A DNA stretch of 63,867 nucleotides, counting the filler, from Asterionella formosa (taxonomy: Eukaryota): NCBI GenBank assembly GCA_002256025.1. It is 5 parts of 5 records of this genome, joined end to end, with 100 filler letters (N's around TTAATTAATTAA, not from the genome) between each part and the next. Parts side by side here need not be neighbours in the genome. Positions count along the whole stretch, not along the records: positions 1 to 29,163 come from NKIB01001063.1; 4 more parts are not named here. The stretch is one strand, 5' to 3'. Shown here piece by piece: positions 6,666 to 60,409 of the stretch. A model generated the notes under the pieces. That model was not told where the DNA came from, did not search any database, and worked only from the letters and a program-made list of their open reading frames with translations. How positions within the stretch are numbered: the first letter of the stretch is position 1; every line of letters starts with the position of its first letter. The position numbers and the translations under genes were made by a program.

Positions 6666-7460
6666 TAAATATAGTTACTATATTCATCACTGAACATAAA
6701 ATTAGTTTTTGAGCCTAGCTCCTCCTTCCAACGGTATTGCCCTCTTTATTTGCGTTTATGTCTATCCACATATATTCATACTGCTATGATTGTATCGAAA
6801 AATGTGTTCTGTCCCAACCAGTGGCGGAAGGTGCACTTATGACAGTCGACCCATCATTATACAGGTGCAACGGTACCAGGTACCAGTTAGCAGTCGTATG
6901 TGTGAATGTATGCATTTATTTATTTGTCTACCGGCATGTGTGTATATTTATGCATGTATTTTGGTTTCTCGATAGTGGATTGCTGACATAAAGCAGCGAC
7001 GACGAGATGAGTCCCCCTCTTGGGCCTCGATGCTCCATGGACTGGTAATTCGCTAAATAAAAACTCATATATTCTCTATTTATTCATACATAAAAATTAT
7101 ATTCAAGAATGATTTACCGGTATTTATCATTCGCTCACATTTATTACGAAGGATCACCTCCACTGGCGCGAGTGTTAGTTATAATTTTTGAGCTAGCGCG
7201 CAATTCCATTTCTATGACCGACATTTCTATATAAAGTGTACATACATATTATGTATACAAATAAAACAACACCGCTTTCGTCCGTGAATGCCGCTATTTA
7301 TACGCGATCTCGGTTACGGCTTCAGCGACCATTATTGCTTTGCTTGTATCCACTTGAAAGACCTGTTCCAAGCGGCGCACGGCACTCAGTCGACAAGGAA
7401 TAACTTGAACGATACAGCTTTCTGTCAACCTTGCGACTCCTTTGAAAGCGCCGAAACACC

Positions 7461-10400
7461 ATGAAGAACAAGAGCCCTTTCCAAGGCAAACGGCGGGGCA
7501 TGACAAGTGGGTCATCCGACAAGTACGCTGATTTGACAGGTGCTTCCCCGCCACGACCCTACGGTGAAGAGGATGGTGGAACTTTCATGAACATGGGTCT
7601 GAAGCGGCAGCCAGCTTCTGAACCAGAAACGCTTAACGACCAGAAGTACAATGTTCCTACTTCCAAGCTCCCTGCATGGATGCAAACACCAAATGGCAGT
7701 TCGAGCGGCGGTCTATTGACTCCCAAGACGCCCAAGAAGTCCTCTGTTGGTGGGCTTTCGCGGGTTCTGGGTAGAGGGAAGGCACCTCATAATTTGGTTC
7801 ACGGTTCCTCTACTAGAAATTTGTTGGACGATCAGTCGGTTGCCTCTAATTCCTACCACAACGAATTGTTGACTGGTTTAGATTCTATTGAGGTGAACTT
7901 GATCCTACCTGGACTTGGTGTGATTCCGACTCAAGGTATGAACCCTTCCAAGGCAACAAAACGTAGAAGTAACTTTGAAAGTTTTAAAGACATCTCGGGC
8001 AACTTCCCGGATTCATCCATCGAGGCGGCAGTAGAAGATGAAAGTAAATCCGATCCTCCGGAAAATGACGAGGGTGACAAGTCGTCGAATCCTACAGTTG
8101 TGGCGAAAGGCAAGGAAACATATGACGCTATCGCTAAAGAGAAGCCTACCAAGCTGGAAAAGATCCATGAGCTCCTTGTTGCCAACAAAGAGCTGAAGAA
8201 AGTCGTCCAGGGGCACCAGAGGGAACTTGTTGAGAAGGACAAGCGTTTAAGAGAGCTGGAGAAAGTGCAATCAAGAACAGGGCAAAGAAGCGGGGAAGAA
8301 CCCACAAACAACGAGAAGCAAGTAGAAGCTCTTCAAGCTCTCTCTTCGGTATCACAAAAGCAGCATGACAGTTTACTATTAGCTGAGATAGAAAACAAGC
8401 GGATGCAAAAAGAAATCGATAGGAACCAAAAGGAAAGTAAGCAGCTGAAGAAAGAGCTCGCTGCTAAGAAGAAAGAATCCATCGGTTTGGAAAAAGAGAT
8501 CAACGCAAACCTGACTGAGATTCTCGGTCTGCGAAAGGAGCTTTCACAAACTCTTCAGCAGCTCGATACCCTCGAAGAAGAACAAGATGAGGATCGGTCC
8601 AAGATTATTTTTCTGACCAAAGAAATATCTCAATTGCGCTCAGGAAATCCATTTGAACCCGCTGACGTTATTGCAATGAAGGAGCAGTTAGAATTATCGG
8701 AAAGAAACCTGAAAAAGAAGGACCGTCTTATAGAAAACCAACGAAAGGAAGTCGTAAATCAAGTTGGGCAAATCATGCAACTCAAGACTGAACTGGAACA
8801 AGCTGAAAAAAAGCTTGAAAAGTCACAGGATGAGTGCGAACGCCTGAAGGAGCTTTCGCAGGACAACCCGAAGGTTCAAAATCAACTCGAGGATTTGAAT
8901 CTCCTCAAGCTCGAGCTTGAAGAAGTTGAAGCCAAGTTACAGCATTCGCAGGAGCAGTGCAATCTTTTAAACAACCTAGCCAGGGCGAATACGGCCCGTC
9001 GAGGTCAATTAAAGGGATCGACGATAGCGTTCGAAGAATCAGAAGAAATGAACCATGCGATAATAAACGAGGAAGCGATGAATCACTTGCAGGTTTACAA
9101 AGCTCGAAATCTCATTAGTAGTGGGAAGCAGGAGCTTTGCGACAACGAGTCAACAGCTGTTGACCATGATCAACTAGAACGAGACATAGAACTATTGCAA
9201 GCTGCTCTTAACGAAGCGAATTACAAGAACAGGGAACTTATGGAGAAGAACGAATTACTGGAGGGGGAAAACTTGTCGCTCGTCGCCCTTCGCCACGCCT
9301 TCAAAAATGCAGAGGACGGGAAAGAGGAAGCTGAGGAGAAGGCCCGAAAAGTCGTGTCTGAATTAAATACTGATGTAATTAAGTTGCAAATGTCTTTGAG
9401 CCAGTCAACAGAGAAATGCGCTAGGCTCGAGACAGAAATTGGTGATTTGCGCGAAGAGTTAAATCGTTTGCATGCTGGACAGGAAAAATGGCAGAGGAGC
9501 ACAGAAACAGCAGAATCTCATACGCAGTCCGTCAGCGAGCCTGTTGCAGAAATCCAATCAGCACAGCGAGAAATATTCGTCTTTCAAGTGGAGATTGAAG
9601 ATCTGCGCAGCAAAAATTCTGAGTTAGAAGAGCAGTTGAATGCTGTCATTGATGATAGAAATGATTGGCGAAAGGCAGCAGAAATGGCCGAAATGAGGGT
9701 AGACGAGTTGCGTCCATTAGTTGTTACTTTGCAGAATTCCAAGGCCGAGGTCATTCTTTTGCGAGAAGAAGTCGACGAACTTCGCAACGAGAAGGAAAAT
9801 CTCGAAGAACAGGCGAGAGAACTTTCTGAAGAAAGAGATACATGGAAGGCATCGACAGAGGATGCCGGTTTAGGCGATGCAAAATCACAAGCCAAAGCCT
9901 CGCTCGTGGAGGAAGTACAAAAAGAGCTTGCTACATTGCAGTCGCAATCAATAAATCGTTGTCAGAGCAACCACGACGCTGATCGTCATATCGAAGAGTT
10001 GACTTCCGAGCGAGATGATTGGAGGGAAGCTGCCGAACAAGCTCAGTTAGACTTAGAGGACGCACGTGAAGAACTAAACAATATGCTACCTTTATATGCG
10101 GACGCTGAGGAACTGCGAAGGGCTATGAGGCAACAAGAAGCAGACAGCGACGAATCGAAGAAGGTCATCGAACATTGGAGAGCTGTTTCCGAAACGATGC
10201 AGACTCAACTTGTCGAGGCGAAAAGTAGTCTTGTTCGGCTCGAACAGCAACGGTCCACTGAAACAACAACAACAAAGTTAGAGCTCGCAGAGACTAGAAC
10301 TGCTATAAGTTCATTGAAAGTATTAGTAGAGGAGTACGAGACTGATTTGCTTGACATGAAAGTTAAGATATCTGAACTGGAATCCGAGCTGCAAGATACA

Positions 10401-13400
10401 TCACGCCAGCGAGATGAATGGAAGGACATCGCGAATGTGAAAGATTTGGGTGTATCCGAAGGTAACAGAATGTTTGGAATGCTCCAACTCGAGTGTTCAG
10501 AACTGCGTGCTGAAGCAGATACGTTGCGTGAGCAAAATGCTGATTTTGAAAATGAAATCGAAGTGATTGTCCTTGAGCGAGTCGAGCTTCAGCAAAAGTT
10601 AGATGGAACGGTTACCGAACTGCTGGGTTCAAAAAGTGCGCTTGAACTAATCGAGAAGGAGCTATACCAGATAGTCCAAGAAAGCAGTGAGTCGCGACTG
10701 CTGATTGAGAATCTTGAGACTCAACTTTCCAATGTTACAACTGAACGTGACATTTTTGAGGAAAACCACAAGCGAGCAATAGCAGATGTCCTGACTGTTA
10801 CATTTACAGCTCAGGCTAGATATAGCGAACACCAAGATACTATTTCTAGGACGCAACAATCGCTTGAGGAGTTACTGACTCAGAAGGCAGACCTTGAAGG
10901 TGACCTGGAAGTTGTCGTAAAGGAGCGGGACGGTTGGAAGGAGCTTGCAGAAACCGCCGAAACTGATGCCAATGAAGCCCACGACTTGATCGCTTCCTTG
11001 GAGGAGAAATTTAACGAATTTTCCGTTGTGGAAAATGAAGCCGTAGAGCTACGACAAGATCGAATCACTCTCTGTAGTAAAATCGACGATTTGAGGGACG
11101 AGAGAGACGCTCTTAAAGCATCACTTGCAAGAACTCAGTCGAACTTATCCGAGAACGAGCAACAACTGAATTCCAAACTTAGCAGCCTTGACGACGACCT
11201 GCGCTTGCAAAGGAAGAAAATAAAGTCGCTCGAGTCAATTGTCGGAGAACTTCGAGAGCAGACTTCCGGCGATGCTTCTGTGATTATGGCGCTCGAGATC
11301 ATGCTTGAGAAAATCCAAGCCGAAAATGTAGAGTATAAAGCGCAGATCACAGTCCAAGAAGAATCGATATCGGAGAAGTCAAACCTAAAGAGTGCAGTTG
11401 CGGAACTCGAGGAACAAATATCTAATAATGCCATCGTTATCAAAGGCCTTCGGTCAATGCAGGATGATTTCAAGTCTACTATCGAGGAGCTTCAAAATGA
11501 TAACACAGAATACCGGACTCAAATCGAATCAATGAACAGATCAATTGAACTTGCCCAATCCACCTTTTCTGAGAACGAAAAACTTATAGCTGCTCAACTG
11601 AGCAGTCTTGAAGTGGATATTCTGACAGAGAAAACTAAGGCAGTTATTCTGCAAAATAGCATCGAGGAACTAGAGGGGCAGCGTGAAACGTTAACGAATA
11701 CTGAATTAGATATGAGAAAGGAACTCTCATCCTTCAAGGAAGAGGGAGGAGAACTACGTCGTCAAATCTCTATGGGCACCTCTACAATCGCCACTCTTGA
11801 CTCCAAGAATAATGAACTTGAGGCCATGACAGTGAAACTTAAAAACGAGAACAATGAGTATAAGACTCGTATCGAAGAATTAACTGCTTTTCTTCAAATT
11901 GCTCGTTCGAACTTGTCAGAAAACGAGAAAAAGTTATCTGACCAACTGAGTGCTCTTGCTAGCGAACTTCAAACAGAAAAGAACAAGGCTCAAGTTATTC
12001 AAAGCCACGTTGAAGAACTGGAGTCTCAATGTGAAGTGCTTCAAAGCGTTGAACAAGAATGGCGAGACGAGATATCAACACTCAACGTTGAAGTTGCGGA
12101 ATTACGCGATCAGATCTCTTGCGACGCTACTTTGATCTCTGAGCTTCAAGCGAGTGAAGAGTACTTGCAGACCTCGATCAATGCACTCAGAATTGAGAAT
12201 ACTGAGTGCATGGGCCATATCGAAGCATCAAAAAGTTATGAACATAACATGAAGCTTGAACTTTTAGCTCTCAGGCAAGAGGTAACGGAGTTACACAGTC
12301 AAATCTTCGATGACGCCGCATTGATCTCTGATTTTCGCTCAAAACAAGATGATTTCGAGGGCATGGTCGCGAAACTCCAAAATGAAAACATTGAGTGCAA
12401 GGTTCAAATCGACGAGTTGAAAGGATCTCTTGACACTGCTCATTCTAATTTGTCTCGGAATGAACGCACACTATCTACCCAGGTTAATAACCTTGAAAGC
12501 GCACTTCAAACAGAAAGGAACAATGTTGCAGTCCTTCAAAAGCACAACGATGAACTAGAGGCTGAGATTGTCATTCTTCGAATCGCTGAACAAGGCAGTA
12601 GAGGTGAGATTTTAACGCTCAAGGGAGAGGTAACCAAATTGCACGAGAAAATCATCAGTGAAACCACGTTTATCTCTCACCTTAAAGCACAAAACGAGAT
12701 CACTGAGACTATGCTTGAAGAGCGTCAGACTGAGGTTTCGGAATTGGGAGTTCAACTGGAAAAGCAAAGGTCTGAGACCAATGAATGGAAATCAAAGGTG
12801 GATACTTCAACGGTGGCAGCATTGTCAACTAGTGCATTCCTTGCAAACACAAAGGAGGAACTTGCCCAAAGTCTGGCGAAGATCAACGTGCTCCAAAAGG
12901 AAGTTAATCACATATCGAAGGAAAGGGATGACTGGAAACATCGCTCCATTTCAGAATCAGAATCAGCTGCGAAATCAGTTGCTCTCTTAGAGGATTTGGA
13001 ACAAGCCTTTAAAGAGGAATGCAGTCAGAGTTTCCTAGTGCAAGTAGGTGAACTTTACCAAACGATTGCCGACTTGGCCGCGCAAATCGAAGAACTTGAG
13101 AAGGAAAACGAGGACTTGCGTCAAAGAAACGAGGGATGCATTTCGCAAATTCAGAGTTTCGCCAGAGATTTGGACGAGAGGAATTCTGACTTGGACTCGC
13201 CAAAGGCAGAATTTCAAGCGCCATCCGTACAATTGACGTCTACAATTGCTGTGGAATTGAATTTGATCAAAAAGGAAGTGATCAGTCTTCGCCACAGGAA
13301 TAGCACATATGCATCTCAAATTGAAAAGTTGACGAAAGAACGAGATGAGTGGATGATTTCAGCGCGCCTCTCCAAGGAAGCCGTGATACAACTCGAGAAT

Positions 13401-15017
13401 ACTCAAAAAGGAATGGAAGACCAACTCGCAGAGAGAGAGAGACTTGAGCATGTGAACGCAGAGTTATTTGAAACTATAACGCGCGTGTCAACGGAACTAG
13501 AGGAATCGAAAACAGCACCGAGCGATGACCTACTGCGAGCTTTAGAGGAGCTTGACAAAGAGAACGAAGAGATTTCAAGAGAGGCCGATTGTCTTCGAAA
13601 GAGAAATGCTGAATTGGAGACCTCACTTGAAAGATTCTCTGTTGAGAAATCCATGCCTAATCAGTCATTGTCCGACATCTCCTCCGAAAAATTTCAAAAT
13701 GGTCTCGCTAGTCTTAAGCAAGAAAATATTGAGTTACGTATCGAGGTCAATGAGTTGCTTTCTGAGAGGGATCATTTGAGGACACTAGCTGATGTTGAGA
13801 TTGTCTCGATACAAGCCATCCTTGAGAAGCAAAAACAAGAATTGATAAGGGACGTTGATGCAGACTTTGTCAATTGCCTCAAAACATGGAACTCCGAGCT
13901 CCAGAAGCAGATTGAAAAGATGGCCAAACAAAGCTGCGAAATCAAGTCTTCTTCTGGCCATTCAAGCCCCGAAACCTTTCCAATTGCCTATACAACACGA
14001 TCATGTCCGACATCACAAGAAGAGCACGTCAGAGTTGCAGCCGAAACTAAAAAGTCCACGGCCACATCCCGATGGAATTTTCTATCCAGCAACGATAAAG
14101 AGCGAGGTGTTGAATCAGACTATCGGGCTGATGCGACGAACTTAATGAGCCAGAAGGAAATTGAAGATTATTGTAAGGAAATAAAGGACCTTAAAGAGTC
14201 AATCAGGAGACTCACGAGCGAGAATCTAAAAATTGTCTCTACGATGAAGGATGAAATGTATGTTAGCAAGAAGAAAGTCGAAACGCTCGAATCCGAAAAC
14301 TCTGCTTACTTATTGAAGATACAGATGCTGGAGTTTGACAGGCAGAACATGATTTCAAAGTTGACGGATATCGAAGCCGCATCGGCATTAAAGCTTAACA
14401 AGATCTATTTTGGTACTGGTAAAAAAACAATCAAAGAATTGGAAGATGCTTTGGTGATATTAGAGCGGCAAAAGAAATTTGCTCAGTCGGAGTGCGAGGC
14501 CTTGCAAAACGATTTCGACAACATGGCAACCGCCTCGAATTTAGCCACTGACAGATTCACAAAGGAGATTGAACATAGGAAGAAGATTCAAGGAGACTAT
14601 GATGACAAGATCAGTGCCCTCGAAAAGATGGTGCTTGCAGTGAATCAAGAAAACGCCAGTCTCCGCGAAATGGCAGCTCAGAGAGCCGATGTTGTCAGTA
14701 CCGGTGGGTATACTGCTGCCAACTTTGCACAAGACGAAAAAGATGTCAAGATCGCACAATTGCATTACGAGCTTGTAAACCTTCGCATGAGACTTGATAC
14801 CATTCGCCACGAAGACTTGAAGCAAGAAGTCATCCAGCTTGAAAAAGAAAAACTTCAACTCAAGGGTATGTGGCAGGAAAAACTCGAAAAAACCATCCTG
14901 GATCACGAAGATATTGTGGAATCCTTGCAATTCCGTTTGCGATCACGAGAGGAGACCATCGTGTTGCTCGAAGAATCTCTCGATCTGCAGCTTCAGAAGA
15001 CTGCCATGGCGTCATAG
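7461..15017 (+). CDS. Giant intronless coiled-coil protein (2518 aa), function unknown
   Basis: Uninterrupted 7.5-kb ORF; disordered N-terminus, then E/L/K/Q-rich heptads with recurrent ERDxW[KR] and SNLSENE motifs. Confidence 0.85.
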   Translation: MKNKSPFQGKRRGMTSGSSDKYADLTGASPPRPYGEEDGGTFMNMGLKRQPASEPETLNDQKYNVPTSKLPAWMQTPNGSSSGGLLTPKTPKKSSVGGLSRVLGRGKAPHNLVHGSSTRNLLDDQSVASNSYHNELLTGLDSIEVNLILPGLGVIPTQGMNPSKATKRRSNFESFKDISGNFPDSSIEAAVEDESKSDPPENDEGDKSSNPTVVAKGKETYDAIAKEKPTKLEKIHELLVANKELKKVVQGHQRELVEKDKRLRELEKVQSRTGQRSGEEPTNNEKQVEALQALSSVSQKQHDSLLLAEIENKRMQKEIDRNQKESKQLKKELAAKKKESIGLEKEINANLTEILGLRKELSQTLQQLDTLEEEQDEDRSKIIFLTKEISQLRSGNPFEPADVIAMKEQLELSERNLKKKDRLIENQRKEVVNQVGQIMQLKTELEQAEKKLEKSQDECERLKELSQDNPKVQNQLEDLNLLKLELEEVEAKLQHSQEQCNLLNNLARANTARRGQLKGSTIAFEESEEMNHAIINEEAMNHLQVYKARNLISSGKQELCDNESTAVDHDQLERDIELLQAALNEANYKNRELMEKNELLEGENLSLVALRHAFKNAEDGKEEAEEKARKVVSELNTDVIKLQMSLSQSTEKCARLETEIGDLREELNRLHAGQEKWQRSTETAESHTQSVSEPVAEIQSAQREIFVFQVEIEDLRSKNSELEEQLNAVIDDRNDWRKAAEMAEMRVDELRPLVVTLQNSKAEVILLREEVDELRNEKENLEEQARELSEERDTWKASTEDAGLGDAKSQAKASLVEEVQKELATLQSQSINRCQSNHDADRHIEELTSERDDWREAAEQAQLDLEDAREELNNMLPLYADAEELRRAMRQQEADSDESKKVIEHWRAVSETMQTQLVEAKSSLVRLEQQRSTETTTTKLELAETRTAISSLKVLVEEYETDLLDMKVKISELESELQDTSRQRDEWKDIANVKDLGVSEGNRMFGMLQLECSELRAEADTLREQNADFENEIEVIVLERVELQQKLDGTVTELLGSKSALELIEKELYQIVQESSESRLLIENLETQLSNVTTERDIFEENHKRAIADVLTVTFTAQARYSEHQDTISRTQQSLEELLTQKADLEGDLEVVVKERDGWKELAETAETDANEAHDLIASLEEKFNEFSVVENEAVELRQDRITLCSKIDDLRDERDALKASLARTQSNLSENEQQLNSKLSSLDDDLRLQRKKIKSLESIVGELREQTSGDASVIMALEIMLEKIQAENVEYKAQITVQEESISEKSNLKSAVAELEEQISNNAIVIKGLRSMQDDFKSTIEELQNDNTEYRTQIESMNRSIELAQSTFSENEKLIAAQLSSLEVDILTEKTKAVILQNSIEELEGQRETLTNTELDMRKELSSFKEEGGELRRQISMGTSTIATLDSKNNELEAMTVKLKNENNEYKTRIEELTAFLQIARSNLSENEKKLSDQLSALASELQTEKNKAQVIQSHVEELESQCEVLQSVEQEWRDEISTLNVEVAELRDQISCDATLISELQASEEYLQTSINALRIENTECMGHIEASKSYEHNMKLELLALRQEVTELHSQIFDDAALISDFRSKQDDFEGMVAKLQNENIECKVQIDELKGSLDTAHSNLSRNERTLSTQVNNLESALQTERNNVAVLQKHNDELEAEIVILRIAEQGSRGEILTLKGEVTKLHEKIISETTFISHLKAQNEITETMLEERQTEVSELGVQLEKQRSETNEWKSKVDTSTVAALSTSAFLANTKEELAQSLAKINVLQKEVNHISKERDDWKHRSISESESAAKSVALLEDLEQAFKEECSQSFLVQVGELYQTIADLAAQIEELEKENEDLRQRNEGCISQIQSFARDLDERNSDLDSPKAEFQAPSVQLTSTIAVELNLIKKEVISLRHRNSTYASQIEKLTKERDEWMISARLSKEAVIQLENTQKGMEDQLAERERLEHVNAELFETITRVSTELEESKTAPSDDLLRALEELDKENEEISREADCLRKRNAELETSLERFSVEKSMPNQSLSDISSEKFQNGLASLKQENIELRIEVNELLSERDHLRTLADVEIVSIQAILEKQKQELIRDVDADFVNCLKTWNSELQKQIEKMAKQSCEIKSSSGHSSPETFPIAYTTRSCPTSQEEHVRVAAETKKSTATSRWNFLSSNDKERGVESDYRADATNLMSQKEIEDYCKEIKDLKESIRRLTSENLKIVSTMKDEMYVSKKKVETLESENSAYLLKIQMLEFDRQNMISKLTDIEAASALKLNKIYFGTGKKTIKELEDALVILERQKKFAQSECEALQNDFDNMATASNLATDRFTKEIEHRKKIQGDYDDKISALEKMVLAVNQENASLREMAAQRADVVSTGGYTAANFAQDEKDVKIAQLHYELVNLRMRLDTIRHEDLKQEVIQLEKEKLQLKGMWQEKLEKTILDHEDIVESLQFRLRSREETIVLLEESLDLQLQKTAMAS

Positions 15018-19617: not shown

Positions 19618-22176
19618 GTTAATATATTCGGTCTTGTTGTTGGAACTGGTGAATCACCTTCTCGTTTGAACCAAAGGATCAATGTCTTCAGCTCAGCACA
19701 GTTATAATTGTTGACAACCTTTCCAGTTCCTCTCAATTGTTGAACCTTGGCTTCCATTGCAACGAATCTTTCATTCGCTTTTCCTCCTTTTGGTTCCGAA
19801 CAATTTGCTGTCTCTGATGAGTCTCCCGCATGTGTGCAAGTAAAGTTGGACCCAGACTTGTATTCCCAACAACCAAGTGCAGCCCTACAATCATCCTTTT
19901 GTGCTGGTAAATTGTGGCTTGTACTGTTTCCCTCCTTTTCCTTGCATTCTCATATGCATTTGTTCCATTTCTTGCATCTTCTCTCGTGATAAACTCCACA
20001 ATTTGGGTTGTCAATGTTCCGGAAACTCCTTCTGTCAGATTGAGCTCAGCAGGCGTCATGGTGCTATGGTGAGCTTCGTTTCTTTATATGCCTCCTCCAT
20101 TTTGGGTCATCTGTATTTCTGGATGAAGCAGTGCATTATAATTAAGTGGTCCGCATCCCCAATCCAAAATTGCTTTTTGATTTGTTAGCTCTCTTGCAAA
20201 ACTCTGGTCCCATGCATGCGAAACAATTCCAACAACAGCTGTCTTTTCAATTGCATACTAAGGCAAATTGTAAAGAGTCTTCTTGGTAAGTAGATCCCTC
20301 TTTGCATGTGTCAAATACATTTTGAAGCATCCGTTTTGTTCGGTACGGTCTCCGACCTGCCAGTAACTTATTCCATAGGGGAGACCAATGCAAAAATTCC
20401 AAGCATTCCAAGGGTTGATTGGGGAATGGATATACTCCAAGAATGTAAGTTCGAAGCGACTCCCATGGCCATCAAGAATGAGAAAAGGATAAACACCATC
20501 ACTCCGGTCGAACACACCAGATAAGTCCATTTGTTGGAGCATTGCAACTAATAGTTCCGCCGTGATTGAGCCAGATTCGGAGCAGCAGCAAATAGTTGGC
20601 AAGGTGATTCCATTCAGCATACACACTGGTCCCTGGGGATAGTGTTTACCAGTTCCAGAATTCGAAATCAGGTCATTTGCTCTCCATTCCATTCATCAAA
20701 GGGTTTAAGGCCCTGCACCCACCCTGGTTCCAATTGTTTTGCTGCAAAAATTATCGCACACATCACAGGTTTGCCATCAGATGTTGTAAATCCTAAAACA
20801 GTGAAATGAGCATCCTTCTGGGCACTTCGTGTTTGCAGCCTTAACTCTGACCCCACAGTAAGCAACGTCTCCCCTCTGATTTGACCATCCTTTGCTTGAG
20901 ATGTATTGCTACCAACTTCTTCAACAAACAGTAACTTCCCTGGATGCTTCAACATGTATTTGGTCTTCATTCCAAATGACTCCTCTTCAGTGGCGACTAT
21001 GTGACCTTCTTTATTGAGCCACACCTCCTCATCTAACTCTTCTGCAATTCCTCCCTTTACCATTTCCTTGTATGTCTCGATATACATCAGTTCGAAGTTT
21101 GGATATGTACACCAGTTGGCCCGCTTATAATCGAATTTCACTCCCTTCTTTGCCTTGACTTTGTGACCATTCCTTTTCATGAAACAACTCCAGTAACCCA
21201 TTTCCAGTCCCTTTGCGTCTTCCACTCCATCATCTTGGTCTCTGAATGAAATTCAATATCTCTTTCACCATTGTTCAACTGATTTCAAAACGGACTTCCC
21301 AGAAATAAGTGAGTTTGCAAGTTGAAGTCCCTTACAACATGTGATTGGTGACCTGATTTTCGACAGCTGAACAATTAGCTCTTCAATATATGGTTCGACT
21401 TCCAACATTGGTGAGGTGACTGCTTCTTTCAGCCCTCTGGGGTTGAATCTTTTCGCCCTTGTTCTAACTTTTTCTTTCTTAACATCAACAGCAGGAGGAA
21501 TACCAAGCGCCTCCTTCCACCTCTCAATTATGCAGATCAGTGTGTTTTTGCCTGCTCGTTTGTATTTCTTTCTTTCTTCCTCTCTCACACTTATAGATTC
21601 TTCTGCTGAAATCACAATGCATTGCTTGGTCAATTTCGCCATGTCAGTGCGAAGGGCAGCTGTAGTTCCCTTTGGACGACCTCCAAATGAATTTGTGCTA
21701 CTAGTAGTGACAATTGTAGAGGGAGCTGTAGTTAAGTCGTCCATAGTAGAACTATTTTCTTCGTATTTTTCCAACACTACACCAGATAGAGAGTCTTCAT
21801 CAATGTATGAGAAACTCTCAAATTTATTAGACAGCTTTACATTTATTTCATCCATTGACATATCAGATATTGCACTTGTTTGTGATTCATTATGCTGGTG
21901 GCTGTTGGGATTAGGTGAAGAAACAACATCTGGCCTTGGAACCGCATTTTTGTTGATCTTGGTGAGGTAGTACTTGACTTTAACAACCGTCAACCATGGT
22001 AGTATACCCTTCATTTCATTGACTGCTTTGGTGAGTGCACCATATAGAAGTTTACCTCTGTTGATGGCTTTCAACAATTCCATTTCAGTTATAGTAGCAA
22101 TGCCAAGTAAACATCTATCTATCATCTCATTAATGAGATCAGGCTTGCGCCTGGTGACTTTTCTTGTCTTCGGCAT
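19618..22176 (-). pseudogene. pogo/Tc1-mariner (DDE_1-type) transposase pseudogene
   Basis: Fragments in several frames: GGRPKGTT, LFVEEVGSNTSQAKDG (first catalytic D apparently replaced by E), HFTVLGFT..GKPVMCAIIF, FLILDGHGSRF, CIGLPYGISYWQVGD..QNGCFK; broken by stops and frameshifts. Confidence 0.8.
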
Positions 22177-25118
22177 GATGCTCAAGATTGTGAGTGGTAA
22201 TGTAAGCAAAGCGTAAAATACATCAAACATACCCATCAGGGTAATTTTGCTTTTCTGGTACATCTACAATGCCGATTACTGGTACAGCCGCCAGAAAAAA
22301 AACGCTAGTCAAATATGATCACCCAAATTAATTATTTGGGTGGCCCAATATGACGAATTTAGTTACGTACATAATTTATGGGTATGACATCACATAAAAA
22401 ATATGATGCATCATACAATATATATGAACGGAGTGAACTAAAATAGTTTCGACAACTTCCATAATTATTTTAGAAACCCACTTAATTTTTGGGGCCAACT
22501 GACAATATTTTCTGGCGACACGAAGAAAAATTTGTTCAGTAATAATCTCTATAATGCACTACTTTTCTCGACAATTCGCAACATTTCCGTTCACAAATAT
22601 TCTTCACTCTAACTACCATTTATTCTGTTTGTTCGCTCCCATTTTATCTTTACTTTGATCACATTAATATCTCAAGGTGAAACAAATATATATGCTAGTC
22701 AAAAAAATAATTATGTGTAACCAATTCATTTTTTCAATTTCATTCTACAATCACAAAATCAATCAAATTAATCGCTTCGCTATATAGTTTATATTGATAC
22801 TTTCTATAGAACGTGATTCTCAAACCAATACGACAAGCAATGGATGTTCATTCTTGCAGCTGGATGCTGTAACTAATCGCAAGATTGCTTGGCTACTCAT
22901 AGTACTTGCAGGAATCCCTGTTATTACTACTACCGGTAGATCAATTCATAGCAAATGAGCCGGCTGCTCATTATCATTGCTCGGATTGATTGTCTGTTGT
23001 AGAAAGAGGGAAACATTTGCAGAGTGAGTTGATGAGAAAAACAAAAGTTGCGAATCCATGATTTCGGTTCTGCTGTGCTCCTTACCATGTTCCCAATGGC
23101 CAACCCAGCCCTCGTCAAATTGATTGTCTGCGATCAGTGAACAACAATCGCAGAGTGAGTTCATGAACAAACAATCATTACAAAGGCATCATTTTCGTTA
23201 TGCTTACCATGCCGCCTGATTCCCAACAAATCTCTCGCTCAACAGATTGATTGTCTGTAGACAAAGAACAGTGTTTCCAGAGTATTTTCGTGATCAACAA
23301 GCAAGTAACAAACACATAATCAAGCCCTTTTTCAAAATCATTACAAATAGCAATTCATGCGCTCTCAATTCCAAACAAAGACGAAGGAGAATAGGAGAGG
23401 AGATCTGCCCACAACAAGCAACAGCAAACAATATCAGCAGAAGGCAAGAAAACATTGCACTTGCTTACCATGTATATAATATTCCCCTTTGCACCAGAGG
23501 AATCGTTTCGACAATGCGAAAAACAAATGATTGATAGCCTGTCTGACACAGAGCATGACACATTTCATTCTTCCCAAGGTTCAACCCTGCCCTGCCAAAA
23601 ACAGTTTGAATGTCTGGAGGAAAGCAAAGAACAAGGTTCGCAGAGTAAGTTCATGACTGACCACTGTTCCAATTCCAAACAGAACAAGCAAGAGGAAGAA
23701 CGAAATGGAGGTAGCGGAACTACAACAACAATCAAACATAGTTCCGAACACAAGTCGAAGAACACGATGGTGTAGAGCAACAAGAGGAAGAACAGCAACA
23801 ATGTAACACAGGACCTGTCTCCATTTTCCAAAAATATTAACTGCTTACCATATATTTCTCGAATTTTCAGATGCAATCTTTCTGTATTACTGACAAGGAA
23901 TAACAAAACCATTGCCTGTCTGTTTCTTCCAGAACCGGCCCGCAACAGAGTCCTCGTCGCTTTTCTGGAAGCGAAGAACATATTCACAGAGTAAGATCAG
24001 GGCTGGTTAAACTCACACAAGACCTTTTTCCATTTCAAAACAAACAATGCATGTTCAGTTCAAACGGAGGGCAAAGAACACGCAAGAGAAGGGTATACAG
24101 CCACAGTAACCACAATGCACCACCAGCCAGCTCCTTGTTTCCAACAATAAGATCCAAAGGGATAACAGCAGAAGCAATAGCAACAACGTCAACGACAACA
24201 ATAACAACAACCACAACGCATAATGAATTTTAACACGAAAGTGATATTTTGTCCCTTTACTGCGTTCTAGTCAGCAGCTACTTTCCAGCTTTCCATTAAA
24301 ATAAACCTGGCGCGGACGGGTTTTCCTCCTACACCTTCGCTTTGTACTAGCCATGTGTACATTCTACTTAACAAAAAGCTGGCGCGCAGTCTATGCTTTG
24401 TCAGTATACTTTTTGGCGAGCAATGCAGACCTCACGAAATTCTGACGAACATGGTGAATCGTCAGGATTTTCTATGTTGTGATTTGCAATTGATGAGTAA
24501 TGCTATATGGCACTGAAAAGGATGTCTGAATTATCTCAACTATTTTTCCCACCTTTTCAGAGCGTCTACAAGGAAAACTACCCCTACAATAATGACTCTA
24601 ACAAGGAAAATATCTAGCTGTAGCAGATCTCCTATCGAATATGCGAATTTTGTTACATAGAAGTAGTCAGTAGAAAATAAGAGCTCCAACAAAAGCTACT
24701 ATTTTCTTTTCGGAAAGGCTATACTTTGTCTACAATGATAATATTATCAAATAAAATTCGGTTAACAAAGAAAAGGATCAGAAACTTTGGTAGATATTTT
24801 TTATTTACCAGTACCTGTAGTTCTATAGGAAAAGTAGTCACATACCTGTACATTATTAGTGTTCATCGAATCTCGTTGTAGTCAGTCGAAAATGAGAGGT
24901 AGCTATTTCCTAGATACTTCAAATAGTCAACAGTGATAACTCTAGCAAGTGGCTGGCATTAGGGAAAGTAGCAATGGCTGTATAGCGGTGTTATATCGAA
25001 TTGAATGAGATAATCTATTTTGTGCTTTTACAAATGATGGATCAAATATCTATATTGTTTTCTCATTCCATAAAACAAATACCGGTACATAATCACTTTT
25101 TAATCGTTTTTTATTACC

Positions 25119-26589
25119 GTGAACGACAACGATTGCTGTTTGATATGTGGTAAGGGTCCATTTGTTTTCCTTTACCGTCATTACGCACATAGCCCCGAAT
25201 GCGAAACAGCTGCTGAGCTGTTTTGTAAACCAGCAACTGGTCCAGACGACGGTCAGGAAGAATATGATGGATTTCATCAATCTCCACCATCACCAGCTGA
25301 TGACTTTTCGTCGTCATTAAAGAAAAGAGCCAAAATTTGTCATGTTCAAACGCTACACTTTGGCGATGAAACAGGCCGTATTGAATGATGGAAAACTGAT
25401 TGATGTTGTATGTTTTGATTTCATGGCTCAGGTTAAGAATCTCTTGACAAATGAGACACTAATGTCACCAGCACAGAATGTGTCATTTGATTTCGACAAT
25501 CCGTGTAAAGCAACACAACCCACCAGTATCAGATCCGAATTTCACACTGGCAGCTGGTGGATTAATGCCCCTGAATACTCATGTACTCAGCCAAATGACT
25601 TCGTTGTTCAATTCATGTTCTTTATTGACAAGACACACACGGTCGAAAAAGAAAAGTACACAATGGAGCCTGTCCTAATGTCACTTGGTACATTTTCCAC
25701 CAATGTAAGAAATAAGGTCAACGCATGGCGGCCAATTGGATTTATCCCAAAGCTGACCTCATCAAATCTATCTGAAATCCAGTCCCTAACCCCTGATCAA
25801 AAGGAATCCGATTATCACGCTGTCCTTGGTGTGATTCTTGAGGGGGTCAAGAATGTCCAACAAGCTGGTGGATTCAAACACATTTTCAATTTCGGAGGCA
25901 ATCAATTTATACTTAATGTGAAAGTTCCGGTCGGTCTAATTCTTGGTGATGCTGAAGGCTTAGATGGACAATACGGGCGAAAGAAAACATATCTGAAGAC
26001 TCCCAGAATGAGTCGTGAATGTGATTGTCCATTTGATGAAACAGACAATCCATATCATGAATGCAGTCCTGTAGGTCAGATTGATTACGAGGAACTAATA
26101 ATCCGGGGCATAAAAGATTTATTGGATAATGTGAGCCAAAGATTCATCTATCCCTTTTGGTATCAGTTGTGTTTTGGTGGCGATCCTCTTGGTGTTAATG
26201 GGCACGTTCCTCCTGAAAAACTCCATTTCATTCAAGAAGGAATAATCGATCACCTCACGGAGCTAGTATATTCTTATATGATCGGGCGCCCCAAAGCAGT
26301 GAAGGGTAATTCCAATCTAAAACTGTTTGACCAGTTGTTCAACAAAATATCTAAACTCTTCCTTCACCAGAGTGACCGAGACCTTCCTTGTTGTTCCTTC
26401 AATTTCGGCTTCCATGGTTGCAAAACGAAAATAACTGCTAACGAGAGAATCGGAGTGATGCTTATTGCCTGTGTTGTCAAGGCATGTGATGCTGGAATCA
26501 AAATCTGCCCAGAAGAAAGTGGTACGACCAATCAAGAAATTCGAAACTTTCAAGGTCTATTCGAAGGGATGCTCTGCTACAATGCCTAG
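25119..26589 (+). pseudogene. Plavaka-like transposase, truncated
   Basis: FDFMAQVKNLL, EFHTGSWW, FFIDKTH, EPVLMSL, AWRPIGFIP, YHAVLGVIL, ILGDAEGLD..GR, RECDCP. An N-terminal CxxC..H..C segment sits in another frame (25119-25388). Premature TAG at 26587 and C-terminal part missing. Confidence 0.7.
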
Positions 26590-26639
26590 TTTAGTAAAGA
26601 GAGCTAGGAAGAGACAAGCATAGGACCCGAAATATTGAT

Positions 26640-28173
26640 CAATGGGTCAAACTTGAACTTTTTTCAAAAGTCAAGTTTATCACACCAGGTGATATTGACC
26701 TTGTTGATGAAAGGGGACCAACTAGTCTGGCACTCTCATTTCGTGTTCACTTCCCAAGCCTATTCATGGGAACTGATAAGGACTTCGAGTCAATTTGGCA
26801 GAAATATAAGAATGATATTAATAAAGTGATGTCTGAAAAAAGAAATGCCGTTGTTATCACTCTCAACTAGTAAGTAAACAACTTGTCTTGGTATGCCTGA
26901 TTTCTTCTTGACTTGTTAAACATACTCATTGTTCACTACCAACAAATCATTCCATTCCGATCTACAAAACTTCAGGACTTTTTCGTGGTGGTATGCACAT
27001 TCATCTGAATAAGCATACCATCTCCACAGCCGTTCTGTTTCTATTCAGGAGACAGCTGATGGAGAAAGAGCCAAGAATCATCCTTTCTTCCTTCTAGTTG
27101 AGTACTTTTATTCTAGGGTCGGGTGAAAGCTGTCTTGGAAACGACAGTGTGCTAAGAAGCATGTCAGTGACATTGTAAGCGTTTCTGACGAGGTTTTTTC
27201 CTTGTTGGTCTTGGAGAATTGTTGGGATGTCTGGTTGTATAAGGCAATGATGAAAGGTCATGAAGACGATACTCCTGCAACAAAATACGTTTATACCGGT
27301 GCTGGAGGACAGGGAAAGAGATATGGAGGCTGGGACGCAAAGGGATATGCCAAGTTCAACACCCTGTATGACAAAGTTGTTCATCAAAGGACAACTGCCA
27401 TGAGCAGGCAGTTGCAGATCAGCTTTAAGTCCAATCATCTTGTTTTGGCTGGAGTTCCACAAGGTCAGTCACTTCGGGGAATGGAACAAAGTGGAATTGT
27501 TGAACTGATATTCATGGAAAATATTGACGAACTGATGGACAACTTCATTGAAGCTACGCCAGGGAACAACATTGTGCCTGCCATTAGAGTTCGTAATGAT
27601 CTAGTGGCCATTTCTCTTCCAGTAAGCACAACTCCGGCATCTTCCATAAGTGGATTGACTCCACAAGTTATTTCAGGAAGAACTTCAATGATAACAACTG
27701 CTGGTAGTACTAAGAGTGCAAAGAGTTTGAACGTGATTATTCACTTTCCCCCAGACAAAGTCAAGGGTGCCACAGATTGGTGCTTCCAAGAGATGAAGAA
27801 AAAGATGTATGTGGAGCTTCGGATGAAGAAAAAGAGTGAAATTTATAAGGCTTGTATTGATCAGAACATTGCACCCCCAGACCTTTTTGGAGATGAAATT
27901 AAAGAAGGGATGATGAATGATGAGAGCTACATTAAAAAAATTCGAGGAGGTTGCAGCAAAGGTCGAGGCAGAGGAAATACAAAGTGGCTAAGAAGAAGAT
28001 CTACGCAAAGTTGCACATGGACTTTTACAGCTACTACGTGTGCTGAATTCTACAGTGTGAATCTTCCTCTTGCATGTGTTATTCTTTGCCAGTTCAGATC
28101 AAAGAAATATGTCGGAGCGGAAAAAATAATAAGTGAATCGGAATTGGAAACTCTTTCGTTCATTATATGGTGA
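26640..28173 (+). pseudogene. Transposon accessory gene of an unnamed family (degenerate, spliced)
   Basis: WVKLELFSKVKFI, KVMSEKRNAV, GTAAGT donor near 26870, IVSVSDEVFSLLVLENCW, KY..GKRYGGWDAKGYAKFNTLYDKV. Confidence 0.5.
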
Positions 28174-28494
28174 AAGCAGCATAATATTGCGGCGGAGCAG
28201 CATAATTTCGCTTTTATACTGTCGCGAGGGCTAGTTGGACAACATATATTGTCATGAACACACATAATTATTGGTGTGATCACATAATTATTCGATAAGT
28301 GAAATAAATTTTTGTTCAACCCGAATAAATTACGGGAAAAGTAACGTAATATTTTAGAAAAGTAGCATAATATTTTAGAAAAGTACCAAAAGTTTTTAGA
28401 AAAGTAGCATAAAGACGTCACTTTAGACATAAATTCGAAAAAGTGCCGTAAACGGCATCTTAGATGTATCTATTCTGCCTCATGCATATATTTA

Positions 28495-29163
28495 CGTCTG
28501 TAAATAAAAAGTATCATGCATATATGATCAAGGGTATCGTACGCTAAGTGGCACAGGATTTTCATATATATGATAATTTTTGGATCAAAACTATGATCAA
28601 GGTATCCTGTAACTATGATGATTTATTAATATTTTACCGAACTTGAAGTATGATGATACCATTGCATCATATAATTAGTTAAACATGGGCCTATGATGTG
28701 TATAATTTTGTCATACATCAATCTGAACATGATCGTAATTCTCATCGATATCACTGTCTAAAATAGGATCAAATGGATCGAAATTTAGAACTATATTTAA
28801 GAATGGTTCTATGTTTCTATATCTTGAGTGGCTATGGAATGTTCTACAATGATCTCATCGCAATGATTGTTGGTGCCGCTTTCACTTCCACCTTCCACCC
28901 AATCCAATTCTGAATGTTGTTGTAATGGTTGCCTTGCCCTTGTTCCCCTGCCTTCCTTTTACTCCTGACGGATCTGAGTTTGCATTCACGCATTTTCCCA
29001 TTACTATTTAATCCGTTTCGTTGTCCCAATCATACTAACAAAGAGAAGCAATTCATTGTTAGCTGTTCATGTTTTGCTCACACAACAACATGCATTTCGC
29101 TTCTATCTTCACTTACCACAAATTGAGGAAGTAACTGATGCATATTTCTGTAAAATAATGTGT
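28495..29163. repeat. Dispersed repeat 'X', copy 1 (cut by contig end)
   Basis: Colinear and highly similar to ~56511-57195 (e.g. AAGGGTATCGTAC..AAGTGGCACAGGATTTT; CTTCACTTACCACAAATTGAGGAAGTAACTGATGCAT). Confidence 0.9.
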
Positions 29164-34690: not shown

Positions 34691-35057
34691 ATATGAAATC
34701 CCCAAAATGATGAAGAGGATAGTAGAATAAGCCATTTCCATCTTGTATCTAAAGATGCATGATCAATCCCCTGTGTCTAGTCATGAGACGCTAATTCTAC
34801 GGCTTCGTCTATTGTTGCTTTTGGTGTAGCGTTGTTAAGGTACGTGTGTGTACCGCTATGTGCGTGTACAGTCAGTACGGTGCTCTTCCGGCACAAGCAA
34901 ATGGCTGTGCATACCGGTATGCGTGTTCCCAGGTACTGGTACCAGGTGCAAGGTACCATCACCGCCAAGGTGGTTTGAATTACTGGATCAGTATATGGGT
35001 GCCGGTATTCCTCAGTGCATTTGACAGAAAAAGATGAAACACCCCATTTGAAGAAAT

Positions 35058-36080
35058 ATGAAGAATTACTGGTTGTTTTTCTCCTTTCTGAAGGTAGCTC
35101 TGATGCAGAGTCGCTCATCAGAAGCTCTTTCTCCAGCAAAACGATGCGAATCACATCAAGGCCATTCACGAGTCGCTAGCAGGCTCTGGGAACAGCCTGC
35201 TTTCTATTCTTCGACTGGGGAACGTTCGGTAGATATGAATCAATACAATTTGCCGATAAATCAGATTGTGTCAGAATGGACCGCTAACTTGATGGCGAAG
35301 ACAAGGGACAGAGAGGAAGGCGTCTACTTGGGGTCCAAGGATGGGCGAGAGATATTTGTGGATACCTTGCAAGTTTCGATCCCTCGACATCAAAATGTAG
35401 GCTTGGGGCTTGAACTTCAAGAAATCGCTGGCGGCAGACTTGATGGTTTGGGAATTACTGTCGTGTCTGGTGTGGTACCAGGAGGCTGTGCAGATGGAAG
35501 TATCATCATGATTGGTGACTCAATCGCAAGTATTAGCGTGGCAACACGGGTCAATCAAAAAGGCTCAAGCGGTGGGCTTATCGAAGCTCAGGTAATTACG
35601 ACAATTCGAACCGAATGTTTAGGCTACGATTCAACTCTTGATGCCATTTCGCGCTTGCCGCCAGTCTCAAGCAGGGAAGAAAGCTTTGTCTTGACCATCA
35701 AGCGACTTCGACGGAAACCAAGAGTCAACATTAAACTGCAATACCCTCCTTCTCAAGGCGAGCCCGATATGACAATTCAGCTGTTTGCAGGAGAAAATCT
35801 CAGAATGGGGATGCTGGTGCGTGGCGTAAAATTAAATGATTCTCTGGCGAAACGCTTCGATACAAAATCAGAAGGAAACTGCGGCGCCAGTGGCTTGTGT
35901 CGAACTTGCGCTGTTTGTGTTGTACGCGGAGTGGAATTGTTGAACCCGCAAAAAGTGAACGAAATGCAAATGCTGGACGATAATCCACGATGGAGGCTAG
36001 CTTGCAAAGCTTTTGTTGGATACGGAATGAGAGAAGGAGAAATGGTCATCAAAGTGAACCCAAACCAATGGAGAGAATAG
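35058..36080 (+). CDS. PDZ-like + 2Fe-2S ferredoxin domain protein, probably plastid-targeted
   Basis: Signal-like N-terminus ending SEA-L; GLGLELQE..GITVVSGVVPGGCA..IMIGDSI (PDZ-like); CGASGLCRTC..RLAC (four 2Fe-2S cysteines). Confidence 0.8.
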   Translation: MKNYWLFFSFLKVALMQSRSSEALSPAKRCESHQGHSRVASRLWEQPAFYSSTGERSVDMNQYNLPINQIVSEWTANLMAKTRDREEGVYLGSKDGREIFVDTLQVSIPRHQNVGLGLELQEIAGGRLDGLGITVVSGVVPGGCADGSIIMIGDSIASISVATRVNQKGSSGGLIEAQVITTIRTECLGYDSTLDAISRLPPVSSREESFVLTIKRLRRKPRVNIKLQYPPSQGEPDMTIQLFAGENLRMGMLVRGVKLNDSLAKRFDTKSEGNCGASGLCRTCAVCVVRGVELLNPQKVNEMQMLDDNPRWRLACKAFVGYGMREGEMVIKVNPNQWRE

Positions 36081-49200: not shown

Positions 49201-50298
49201 GCTCCTGCAGAGGACATGGACTTTGGTGATGAAGGCGATTGGGGAGACGACCTCGACGATCTCGGTGATCTTGGAGAACCTGATACTCCAAAGGCTCCAG
49301 TCAATGAGATGGCCGAACTTCAAGGCGTTTCCGATGATGCCACCTTCCAGATGCCTGCTGCCGGACGACCAGCTCCTGGCTGCTGGGTTGCCAACAGTTC
49401 ACACGCCGCCGATCACATTGCTGCTGGAGGTGCAGCATCTGCCATGCAACTGTTGAATAGACAAATTGCTGTTGGCGATTTTGTGGTACTAAGAGAAACC
49501 ATGATTGGCTGTTACCTAGGCTCGATGCTCAGCGTCCCTGGTGTTCCTGGAAGTCCTGCAATGAGCATTCCGCTCCTTCGAAACGATCTTTCCGGAAGCC
49601 CTGGGGCTGATAGTCTTCCACGAACATCACTAAAGATGAAGCACTTAGTCGCTGGAATCAAAAATGGATACCGTTTTTTCCAAGGTGGTAAATTCAATGA
49701 TGCCAAAAGCTCATTCCATGACGTCCTCAACAAGATTCCAATGGTCATTACCGAGAACAAGGGCGAAGGCGCAGAGATGAAAGAAATGTTAGAAATTAGC
49801 CGAGAATACATCACTGCCATCCGCATCAAGTCTGCCATGGCCGAAGCCGGTTCGGACCCCGTCAGATCTACAGAACTCTCAGCTTACTTTACACACTGCA
49901 ATCTTCAACCTGTCCATCTGCTGTTGGCTCTCCGATCGGCCATGGGAACTGCCTTTAAGCACAAGGAATTTATTGCAGCTGCTGGATTTGCTCGTCGCCT
50001 TCTCGAACTACCTGATATGAGCAGTGAGCGTAATGCTGACCTTCGTGTCAAGGCTACCAAAGTCTTACAGAAGAGCGAACAGATGGCTCGCAACGAGCAT
50101 GAGCTGAACTACGACGAATCCACTAGTTTTGTCATCGATTGCAAGAACTTTGTTCCTGTCGTTGTTGGTTCTCCGTCGGTCAAGTGTTCTTACTGTGGTT
50201 CGACTTATGGTGACCTTGATATGAAAGGCAAGGCCTGTTTGACTTGTGAGTTCGGAACCGTTGGTGTCAACACGATTGGTCTCGTCACTGGATCGTAG
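46279..50298 (+). CDS. COPA: Coatomer subunit alpha (alpha-COP); exons 46279-46382 and 46557-50298
   Basis: Exon 1 [19 protein letters not shown]..; GTAAGT..ACAG intron gives QLWDYR; WD40 repeats, KLERERP, C-terminal [15 protein letters not shown] and zinc-binding end. Confidence 0.97.
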
Positions 50299-58081: not shown

Positions 58082-58378
58082 CATCTACAACGCCGATTAT
58101 TGGTACAGCCACCACAAAAAAAACGCTAGTCAAATATGATCACCCAAATTAAAATTTTGGGTGGCCCACTATGACAAATTGGGCTATATACATAATTTAA
58201 GGGTATGATATAAAATATAAAATGTGATGCATCATAGAATATATATGATAGGAGTGAACTAAGATATTTTCGACAACTTCCTAAATTTTTTATAAACCCA
58301 CATAAATTTTGGGGCAAACTAACAATATTTTTTTATGGCCGATCATATAATTTCTGTATCGACAACCGCAATTATTGT
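58082..58378 (+). mobile_element. Second left end of the CATCTA-terminated element (cut by contig end)
   Basis: ~260 bp similar to 22261-22520; similarity starts exactly at TA|CATCTACAA. Confidence 0.8.
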
Positions 58379-58478
58379 NNNNNNNNNNNNNNNNNNNNNN
58401 NNNNNNNNNNNNNNNNNNNNNNTTAATTAATTAANNNNNNNNNNNNNNNNNNNNNNNNNNNNNNNNNNNNNNNNNNNN
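58379..58478. other. Artificial contig spacer
   Basis: N44-TTAATTAATTAA-N44. Confidence 0.97.
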
Positions 58479-58566
58479 ATGATCAAAGAAATTGTTCCTT
58501 TGGAGGTACGTTTGTTGTTATTTTTGCTGTCTAGCATTTTATTCATGTACTCATCTGTTGCTTCAA

Positions 58567-59230: not shown

Positions 59231-59451
59231 TTCCAGGTAACATACCTGTACTCCGGTACCTGGTAAAAGGGGTACTCACCTGGTACCAGGGTACCGTGCA
59301 GGAGGTAGAGGCATGTACGGGTGTTATGTACTGTAGTCACCACTGTAAATTCTTGTTCTGACTCCTTCATCACTCATACAAATAGGAAAGTCACAATCAC
59401 CATACCACAACAACTTATTCTTCACAACAACTTGTGCTTTTGACAACAAGA

Positions 59452-60309: not shown

Positions 60310-60409
60310 NNNNNNNNNNNNNNNNNNNNNNNNNNNNNNNNNNNNNNNNNNNNTTAATTAATTAANNNNNNNNNNNNNNNNNNNNNNNNNNNNNNNNNNN
60401 NNNNNNNNN
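60310..60409. other. Artificial contig spacer
   Basis: N44-TTAATTAATTAA-N44. Confidence 0.97.

Follow-up and report, generated by a model that had tools for sequence, protein, structure and literature searches.

What kind of transposon occupies positions 22259-28468 of a stretch of the Asterionella formosa assembly GCA_002256025.1 (63,867 nucleotides, filler included; this whole stretch is here called the window), and is it the under-described system for which it had been taken? An earlier note had placed here a Plavaka-type transposon with CATCTA ends, holding a transposase and a second gene, and had read it as a lineage with its own end structure and TA targeting. Plavaka elements were reportedly defined by Iyer et al. 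in 2014. Our analysis indicates that the window element very probably derives by internal deletion from a cut-and-paste transposon that amplified recently, has PlavakaB-like ends and belongs to the Plavaka group (CMCT clade); it is itself non-autonomous.

The element spans 22261-28466, starts with CATCTA and ends with TAGATG, and TA stands at 22259-60 and again at 28467-68, bearing out the delimitation with TA on both flanks; the assignment of the end pair 22261/28466 to one element is supported. Its terminal inverted repeats (TIRs) are imperfect, as the earlier note had said, and shorter than the ~24 bp it gave, extending over 19-21 bp, with 16 of 19 and 17 of 21 bases pairing and 0 further inward. 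The ~21-bp subterminal repeats it described are clear at the right end, where 21 was the top lag, at a value reached by 0 of 300 shuffles, and where 28336-28398 holds three 21-nt copies. At the left end the periodicity is weak (lag 21 ranks second and was reached by 33 of 300 shuffles). The empty site of the window insertion is represented by L260, a paralog of the host repeat at 93% identity, in which a single TA stands in place of the two in the window. The TA is therefore a duplication that lies outside the TIR.

We searched a genome assembly of 68.4 Mb and 15,436 contigs (G000) for exact copies of the terminal 22-mers. There were 142 left and 140 right ends, counts that take in a sister subfamily described below, and 0 for reversed controls. 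The best 40 left ends are 96-100% alike and many terminate at contig ends, as collapsed young repeats do. By pattern counts, TA flanks 59 of the 142 left and 61 of the 140 right ends, which is ~7-fold over a background of 5.9% measured on the window and not on the genome, and the TA bias that had been proposed thus held up. Early BLAST-type counts of TA (16/29 left, 24/31 right) were discarded in favour of these pattern counts because the queries contained the TA and were hence biased. Among the first 30 flanks in contig order, left flanks were TA 11, CA 6, AA 3, TG 3, GA 2 and singles 5, and right flanks were TA 10, TG 7, AA 3, GG 2, TT 2 and singles 5, with no flank in 1 case.

Empty sites define the target-site duplication (TSD) directly. 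Of 70 left and 59 right flanks, all distinct, empty sites allowed 14 left ones to be matched to a right one, and 14 of 14 gave a 2-bp overlap (TA 7, TT 2, TG 2, GA 1, AA 1, CA 1). Furthermore, the sequence following 20 left ends was retrieved, and in 4 cases it extended to a right end that was scored (AA/AA, AA/AA, TG/TG, TC/TT), which together with L061 and the window makes six whole copies; the duplication is perfect in four of these (AA/AA, AA/AA, TG/TG and, in the window, TA/TA). The element duplicates any two bases at its insertion site, and TA is a preference only. Several details weigh against so simple a rule: two of the six whole copies have a one-base flank mismatch (TC/TT in L177, AA/TA in L061), most empty-site pairs combine ends of different contigs by inference, the empty paralog differs at one TSD base in 3 of 14 pairs, and four extra rows, with ends already paired, gave offsets of -2, -2, 3 and 6 (tandem or indel-bearing targets). 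The flank logo shows W at -5/+5 and C/G beside the TSD, a hint alone from a partly biased set. Some insertions sit inside the subterminal array of the element itself or within the body of a second transposase family (L075/L056, L103/L003, L038/L060, L004/L095), and one tandem repeat was struck at two sites 4 bp apart (L018/L102, L063/L104).

These data bear on two other accounts of the ends. One, in line with the inference of the earlier note, makes the element a lineage that targets TA strictly, as ESTA or Tc1/mariner do, and has an end structure of its own. The ~7-fold TA enrichment and the TA at both window ends fit this, and ESTA is given as a TA-only lineage within the same clade (PMC12730594). 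However, TA is absent from 83 of 142 left and 79 of 140 right ends, and GA, TT, TG, AA and CA duplications occur at empty sites or in whole copies, also in young copies with ends 97-98% identical, which already refutes strictness; moreover, ESTA ends begin with CAC and it is PlavakaB ends that begin with CATC (PMC12730594). TA targeting as a rule fell with the variable 2-bp TSD, since over half of the insertions have other dinucleotides, and we hold this account to be very improbable. Another account takes the TA as part of the TIR, or the duplication as missing or of 3 bp, the latter as plant CACTA elements have it. Copies differ in their flanking dinucleotide, with CATCTA constant, and exactly 2 bp were found at 14 of 14 empty sites; what could be held in favour of this account are the two whole copies with non-identical flanking dinucleotides and the one alternative row at offset 3, but that row rests on a paralog with a one-base indel, for which a zero-mismatch 2-bp alternative exists. 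We think it extremely unlikely, and the placing of the TA outside the TIR in the earlier note stands.

The ORF (open reading frame) at 25321-26586 matches the Plavaka profile PF18759 (E=3e-12, 46.8 bits; cut-off 26.3 bits), in agreement with the Plavaka-like transposase that had been proposed. The full-length form is found on a metagenome contig (L204), of which 12.8 kb contain the left end, an intact 950-aa transposase (P0002) and gene 2; adding the right end as it occurs at loci of the genome assembly brings the full length to ~13.5 kb. P0002 scores 52.5 bits against PF18759, and a search of 50% clusters gave 3,167 relatives at E<=0.001. Its D284, D391 and E671 form a triad with C412/C415 and H647/H651, conserved in 46-55 of 55 aligned proteins; D284, D391, C415, H483, H647 and E671 occur in every one of the 55, and H651 is kept in 53. 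A D, D, E triad with C(2)C and H(3-4)H is the CMCT signature (PMC12730594). The zinc-finger-like N-terminal piece was also confirmed, as CxxC..H at 25119-25373 in a different frame; C7, C10 and H21 are retained in 40-45 of 55 homologs, and matches in the PDB were weak C2H2-finger matches only. The AlphaFold model of P0002 (pLDDT, the predicted local distance difference test score, 84.8) matches RAG1 (Foldseek E=7e-11; Z 19.2, root-mean-square deviation (rmsd) 4.7 over 478 residues) and HzTransib (Z 14.4), with the match covering residues 131-725, and on this model the full-length transposase is predicted to have the RAG1/Transib fold.

Because the model matches RAG1/Transib, we infer the mechanism from RAG1/Transib and CACTA chemistry. 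The transposase would bind the TIRs and the subterminal sites of 21 bp (two helical turns), excise the element and join its ends to target strands two bases apart; repair would therefore copy two bases and leave the 2-bp TSD. TA and other T/A-edged steps would be favoured and not obligatory. The full-length element of ~13.5 kb comprises three genes, namely the transposase, a cargo gene on the opposite strand and gene 2.

The window copy is 90-95% identical to L204 and has lost much of this content, in three internal deletions. There is a premature stop at 26587-26589 in the transposase remnant, and the second deletion takes out H647, H651, the catalytic E671, the BAH-like C-terminus, the entire GNAT-like cargo gene and the 5' part of gene 2. 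All the missing parts occur in the genome assembly at 95-99%. Because of the three deletions, including loss of the catalytic Glu, the window copy is, to judge by its sequence, dead, non-autonomous and internally deleted, and it would be mobile only in trans. The features are as follows.

20668-22258, minus strand: host repeat with broken ORFs, the element being inserted in its 5' region; 11 copies at 75-100% in the genome assembly
22259-22260: left TSD copy (TA, 2 bp), a single TA at the same point in the empty paralog
22261-22281, plus strand: left TIR, starting CATCTA, 17 of 21 bases pairing with the right end
22282-22520: left subterminal region with weak 21-23 bp periodicity, common to the sister subfamily
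22521-25118, plus strand: long leader with degenerate internal repeats and no gene recognised, ~90% to L204 and L205 and retained in non-autonomous copies; two of its short ORFs gave no Pfam match
25119-25373, plus strand: transposase residues 1-85 with the zinc-finger-like N-terminus, start codon changed to Val; 92% to P0002
25367-25368: deletion 1, ~343 bp, with frameshift; the window maps to L204 3273 and then 3617
25368-26603, plus strand: transposase residues ~199-608 with the first two catalytic Asp, C(2)C and the first His; PF18759 match, 87% to P0002
26603-26607: deletion 2, ~5.9 kb; the window maps to L204 4847 and then 10750
26607-28030, plus strand: gene 2 remnant, probably spliced; 93% to L204 10750-12192
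28030-28031: deletion 3, which takes the last part of gene 2 and a tandem array of 194 bp
28170-28445: right subterminal array with 21-bp period
28446-28466, minus strand: right TIR, its 22-mer found 140 times in the genome assembly
28467-28468: right TSD copy (TA), from the empty paralogous site
58080-58378, plus strand: TA and left end of the sister subfamily, cut by an assembly gap; ~250 bp in common with the window element at 84-88%

Two parts of the full-length element, both missing from the window copy, might serve functions beyond transposition itself. Residues 735-940 of P0002 (L204:5227-5844) are present in 55 of 55 homologs. Compared with 48,161 chains, this region found BAH domains as all of its best matches (Z 7.0-8.4, rmsd 2.5-4.6, 93-120 residues), among them ORC1 (Z 8.3, rmsd 4.0 over 120 residues), TNRC18 (7.7), MET1 (7.7), DNMT1 (7.5) and AIPP3 (7.4, rmsd 2.5 over 93 residues), with chromo, Tudor and PWWP matches at Z <=4.6. 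In the 55-protein alignment W820, D822, W823, F846 and W944 are near-invariant, and the aromatics Y814 and W828 are also conserved; with W820, W823, F846 and W944 these are candidate residues for a cage that would bind methyl-lysine. We consider the BAH reading a good lead because more than 10 BAH entries agree, and the model makes it fairly likely that the transposase ends in a BAH-like fold. To be set against this, a Z of 7-8 is at the level that the search tool calls common, and the domain was taken from a whole-protein model. The Pfam BAH profile found no match in 8 members. A shared BAH-like fold in itself shows no function. In the literature searched, we found no description of a BAH domain in Plavaka-type transposases.

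The cargo gene lies on the opposite strand, tail to tail with the transposase. It has a 412-codon first exon (L204:8658-9893, minus strand), followed by a probable GT-AG intron and a long part that is basic and of low complexity; it is frameshifted in L204, with the frame restored in contigs of two other runs, and has 105 matches in the genome assembly. Its top ESM Atlas matches are GNAT (0.95), with 10 of 10 in the same family or clan, and a 96-aa piece matches Pfam Acetyltransf_7 (PF13508) with E=0.0036 and 18.1 bits, below the cut-off of 27. By eye it has a GxG stretch resembling motif A, the acetyl-CoA-binding motif of GNAT acetyltransferases, and a motif-B-like stretch. Taken together, the sequence matches make a GNAT-like core probable. 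Several results count against it: the Acetyltransf_7 match was obtained only after trimming, at 2 of 3 trial lengths and below cut-off; the Atlas shared features came to 147 of 256, when true family members mostly reach at least 170; a single-sequence AlphaFold prediction of the cargo core gave pLDDT 32.5 and no fold; there was no sequence match in the PDB; and homolog searches returned no cargo homolog outside the Plavaka-type family. Three RNA runs (all contigs) had no splice joint or clear transcription. In two of the runs, both metatranscriptomes, contigs are unspliced across the predicted introns and the leader, and a polyA run covers the termini only. Such unspliced contigs look as DNA would, and the RNA data therefore speak neither for nor against expression. 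No description of a transposon-borne GNAT in eukaryotes was found in the literature searched.

The second gene that had been noted is indeed present, with 124 matches in the genome assembly, and it is conserved in the second transposase family, at 44% and 56% identity to the counterpart on L207. It had no above-cut-off match in Pfam, PHROGs or NCBIfam and none that was informative in the Atlas. CACTA elements offer a model by position in TnpA, and by this analogy gene 2 could act as a TnpA counterpart that binds the subterminal array.

Related families place the element in a wider group. The left end at 58082 begins at the same base with a TA flank, as the earlier note had seen. It belongs to a sister subfamily, with terminal 22-mers in common with the window element and similarity over ~250 bp only. 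Through an empty site (L039) it pairs with a right end (L108), with a 2-bp TA overlap, and this right end is 75% identical to that of the window element. The end at 58082 was also considered as the end of the second transposase family (L207) and ruled out, as that family has a different left end. The second family is 57% identical, and its left end also starts with CATCTA (2 intact of 3 seen; flanks TA and AA); at L270:2728 and L272:2486 it is closer to the window family's right end than to its left end. A right end of the second family was searched for and not found. Beside the second-family transposase is a 488-codon ORF (L207:3724-5187, plus strand) with, by eye, an HxD..H like that of 2-oxoglutarate (2OG)-Fe(II) oxygenases; it had no informative match in Pfam, PHROGs, NCBIfam or the PDB. 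Downstream of the second-family gene 2, many copies have a 127-codon piece (L234:902-1285, minus strand; L207:8277-8479), which may by a motif resemble the photosynthetic protein PGRL1; it had no Pfam match and is possibly a captured host gene fragment.

More distant PF18759 families also occur in the genome assembly (C12973:9942-10637, that is L183, and C14504, C6778 and C13776), of which L183 shows 27% identity to P0002 and the highest score with the Pfam model. Viral and prokaryote collections held no close relative, and the exception was one distant contig in a bacterial metagenome-assembled genome (L274), which is probably eukaryotic DNA binned with a bacterium. On this contig a gene (L274:3605-5719, minus strand) lies tail to tail with a distant Plavaka transposase and has Lys/Pro-rich repeats and an endonuclease III/HhH-GPD-like C-terminus. 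It matches endonuclease III/NTHL1 at E=3e-5, with Pfam HhH-GPD below cut-off, and is a single case whose ends are off the contig. Runs with the element are mostly freshwater, riverine and lake samples, with some marine and one algal culture.

What might the interior genes do? It is conceivable, though doubtful, that the cargo and the BAH-like domain act on chromatin, against silencing or in target choice. A broader version, which we offer as tentatively, is that algal Plavaka elements carry a chromatin kit, in which a BAH-like reader is fused to a RAG1-type transposase and a swappable slot holds an enzyme: GNAT here, an endonuclease III-like glycosylase in the distant relative and an oxygenase-like gene in the sister family. 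If this were true, the reader would guide binding or the choice of target and the acetyltransferase would hold the chromatin of the element in an open state, and the cargo would be a transposon-borne histone or protein acetyltransferase, of which the literature searched gave no description.

The alternative, to which we give somewhat less than an even chance, is that the interior genes travel along as passengers and play no part in transposition: captured, drifting DNA of the Pack type with a chance GNAT-like signal, next to a C-terminal beta-domain that binds DNA or protein and not histone marks. The three RNA runs in which no expression was seen, the lack of an outside homolog for the cargo, its weak profile scores, and a sister family with different interior genes and an apparent host gene fragment would all be in keeping with passengers. 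Drift, however, fits poorly with the 412-codon open first exon in L204 and with a motif region that is near-unchanged in several copies of the genome assembly and covered by contigs of other samples, nor would it predict a C-terminal domain kept in 55 of 55 homologs with its five near-invariant residues. The distant relative on L274 has its endonuclease III-like gene in the same position and orientation, and enzyme cargo has been published for fungal (PMC12730594) and red-algal (bioRxiv 10.1101/2025.02.11.637652) Plavaka.

The remaining observations concern the surroundings of the element. Measured from the ATG (22176) of the minus-strand repeat ORF, the insertion point is 83-84 bp upstream, close to the ~85 bp upstream of a pogo ORF stated before; the ORF may be pogo-like by a motif, and profile scans gave no Pfam match for it. 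Another repeat family begins 30 bp right of the element (28496-29163), recurs at 82% near the 58082 end (56511-57195; also 52585-52743) and is itself targeted by the Plavaka-type family (L067). Elsewhere in the window, two inverted duplications, one perfect over 1,981 bp at 58379-62340 and arranged about gap linkers (N runs with a TTAATTAA spacer), the other of 112 bp at 62341-63866, are most likely scaffolding artefacts. Short GGTACC/CCAGGTA-type tandem motifs are frequent in intergenic DNA (e.g. 5399, 6483, 17286, 32685, 42024 and 45719). Other genes on the plus strand are a 2,523-codon coiled-coil ORF without a family (7446-15017), a 2Fe-2S ferredoxin-domain gene with a long N-terminal part (35052-36080) and coatomer alpha (46540-50298).

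How does this family compare with known systems? Plant CACTA/EnSpm elements have CACTA/G ends and a 3-bp TSD; here we found CATCT ends and a 2-bp TSD. RAG1/Transib elements make a 5-bp TSD. The fold of residues 131-725 is shared with RAG1/Transib (PDB 6dbx, 3jbx, 6pqx; Z 14-19), at only 10-13% identity, and the RAG1/Transib matches have no BAH-like C-terminal domain. ESTA is alike in its CMCT clade, 2-bp TSD and TA, but is TA only with a CAC start (PMC12730594), whereas the window family has many dinucleotides (TA at 59/142 and 61/140 ends) and a PF18759 match. The giant EnSpm elements of the stramenopile Ectocarpus (PMC12477816) are similar in reaching up to 15.2 kb, in carrying extra genes and in being mobilised in trans; in the accessible text they are not named Plavaka and no acetyltransferase is mentioned. 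Literature searches at title level gave no description of a diatom Plavaka. The group is no longer mainly fungal: it is reported in red algae (bioRxiv 10.1101/2025.02.11.637652) and in chlorophytes and streptophytes (PMC13519894). The red-algal giant Plavaka with PAG1-3 (bioRxiv 10.1101/2025.02.11.637652) resembles the present family in its large size (17-19 kb there, ~13.5 kb here), in accessory genes proposed to modify chromatin or DNA and in that most copies are decayed; it differs in having an adenine methylase-SET protein and a ParB-2OG oxygenase where we find a GNAT-like gene.

The closest fit is PlavakaB of Agaricomycotina (Kojima 2025, PMC12730594), given with CATCA..TGATG ends and a TSD of 2 or 3 bp; PlavakaA has TGT..ACA and 2 bp, CAC..GTG with 3 bp is also given, dinucleotide TSDs are variable in Figure S2, and Table S1 has PlavakaB-1_GyCo starting CATCT and PlavakaB-1_AuCo starting CATCG. 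Our family has PF18759 above cut-off, the DDE with C(2)C and H(3-4)H in P0002, CA..TG termini and a TSD within 2-5 bp, and its ends are CATCT..AGATG, unlike those of PlavakaA and differing from the PlavakaB consensus at position 5, with a 2-bp TSD in 14 of 14 pairs. In ends, TSD and transposase motif its sequence thus appears to be of PlavakaB type and, as proposed earlier, Plavaka-type and CMCT/EnSpm-related. The idea of an own end structure fails because fungal PlavakaB has already been published with CATC- ends and TSDs of 2-3 bp, CATCT being the start in one of its families (PMC12730594). As an under-described system the element is therefore ordinary in ends and TSD, and what remains new is a host-side variant, whose GNAT-like cargo and BAH-like domain on the transposase are leads and are both lost from the window copy. 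Its ~140 insertions, many 97-99% alike, give a measured target preference for a Plavaka element, and its relatives supply natural intact transposase sequences for a group without a solved structure among the PDB matches. Should the BAH-like domain and the GNAT-like cargo hold, transposon-borne chromatin enzymes, known as TET/JBP in fungi and as methylase-SET and oxygenase in red algae, would extend to acetylation and to a reader on the transposase. Like PlavakaB (PMC12730594), the family combines PF18759 with D, D, E, C(2)C and H(3-4)H, CATC.. termini, short TIRs, a variable 2-bp TSD and a length of several kb with extra genes. In contrast to PlavakaB, it has only 2-bp TSDs, ~42% of them TA, asymmetric ends with a 21-bp subterminal array, a GNAT-like cargo in place of TET/JBP and, where PlavakaB hosts are fungal, run habitats that suggest a non-fungal host.

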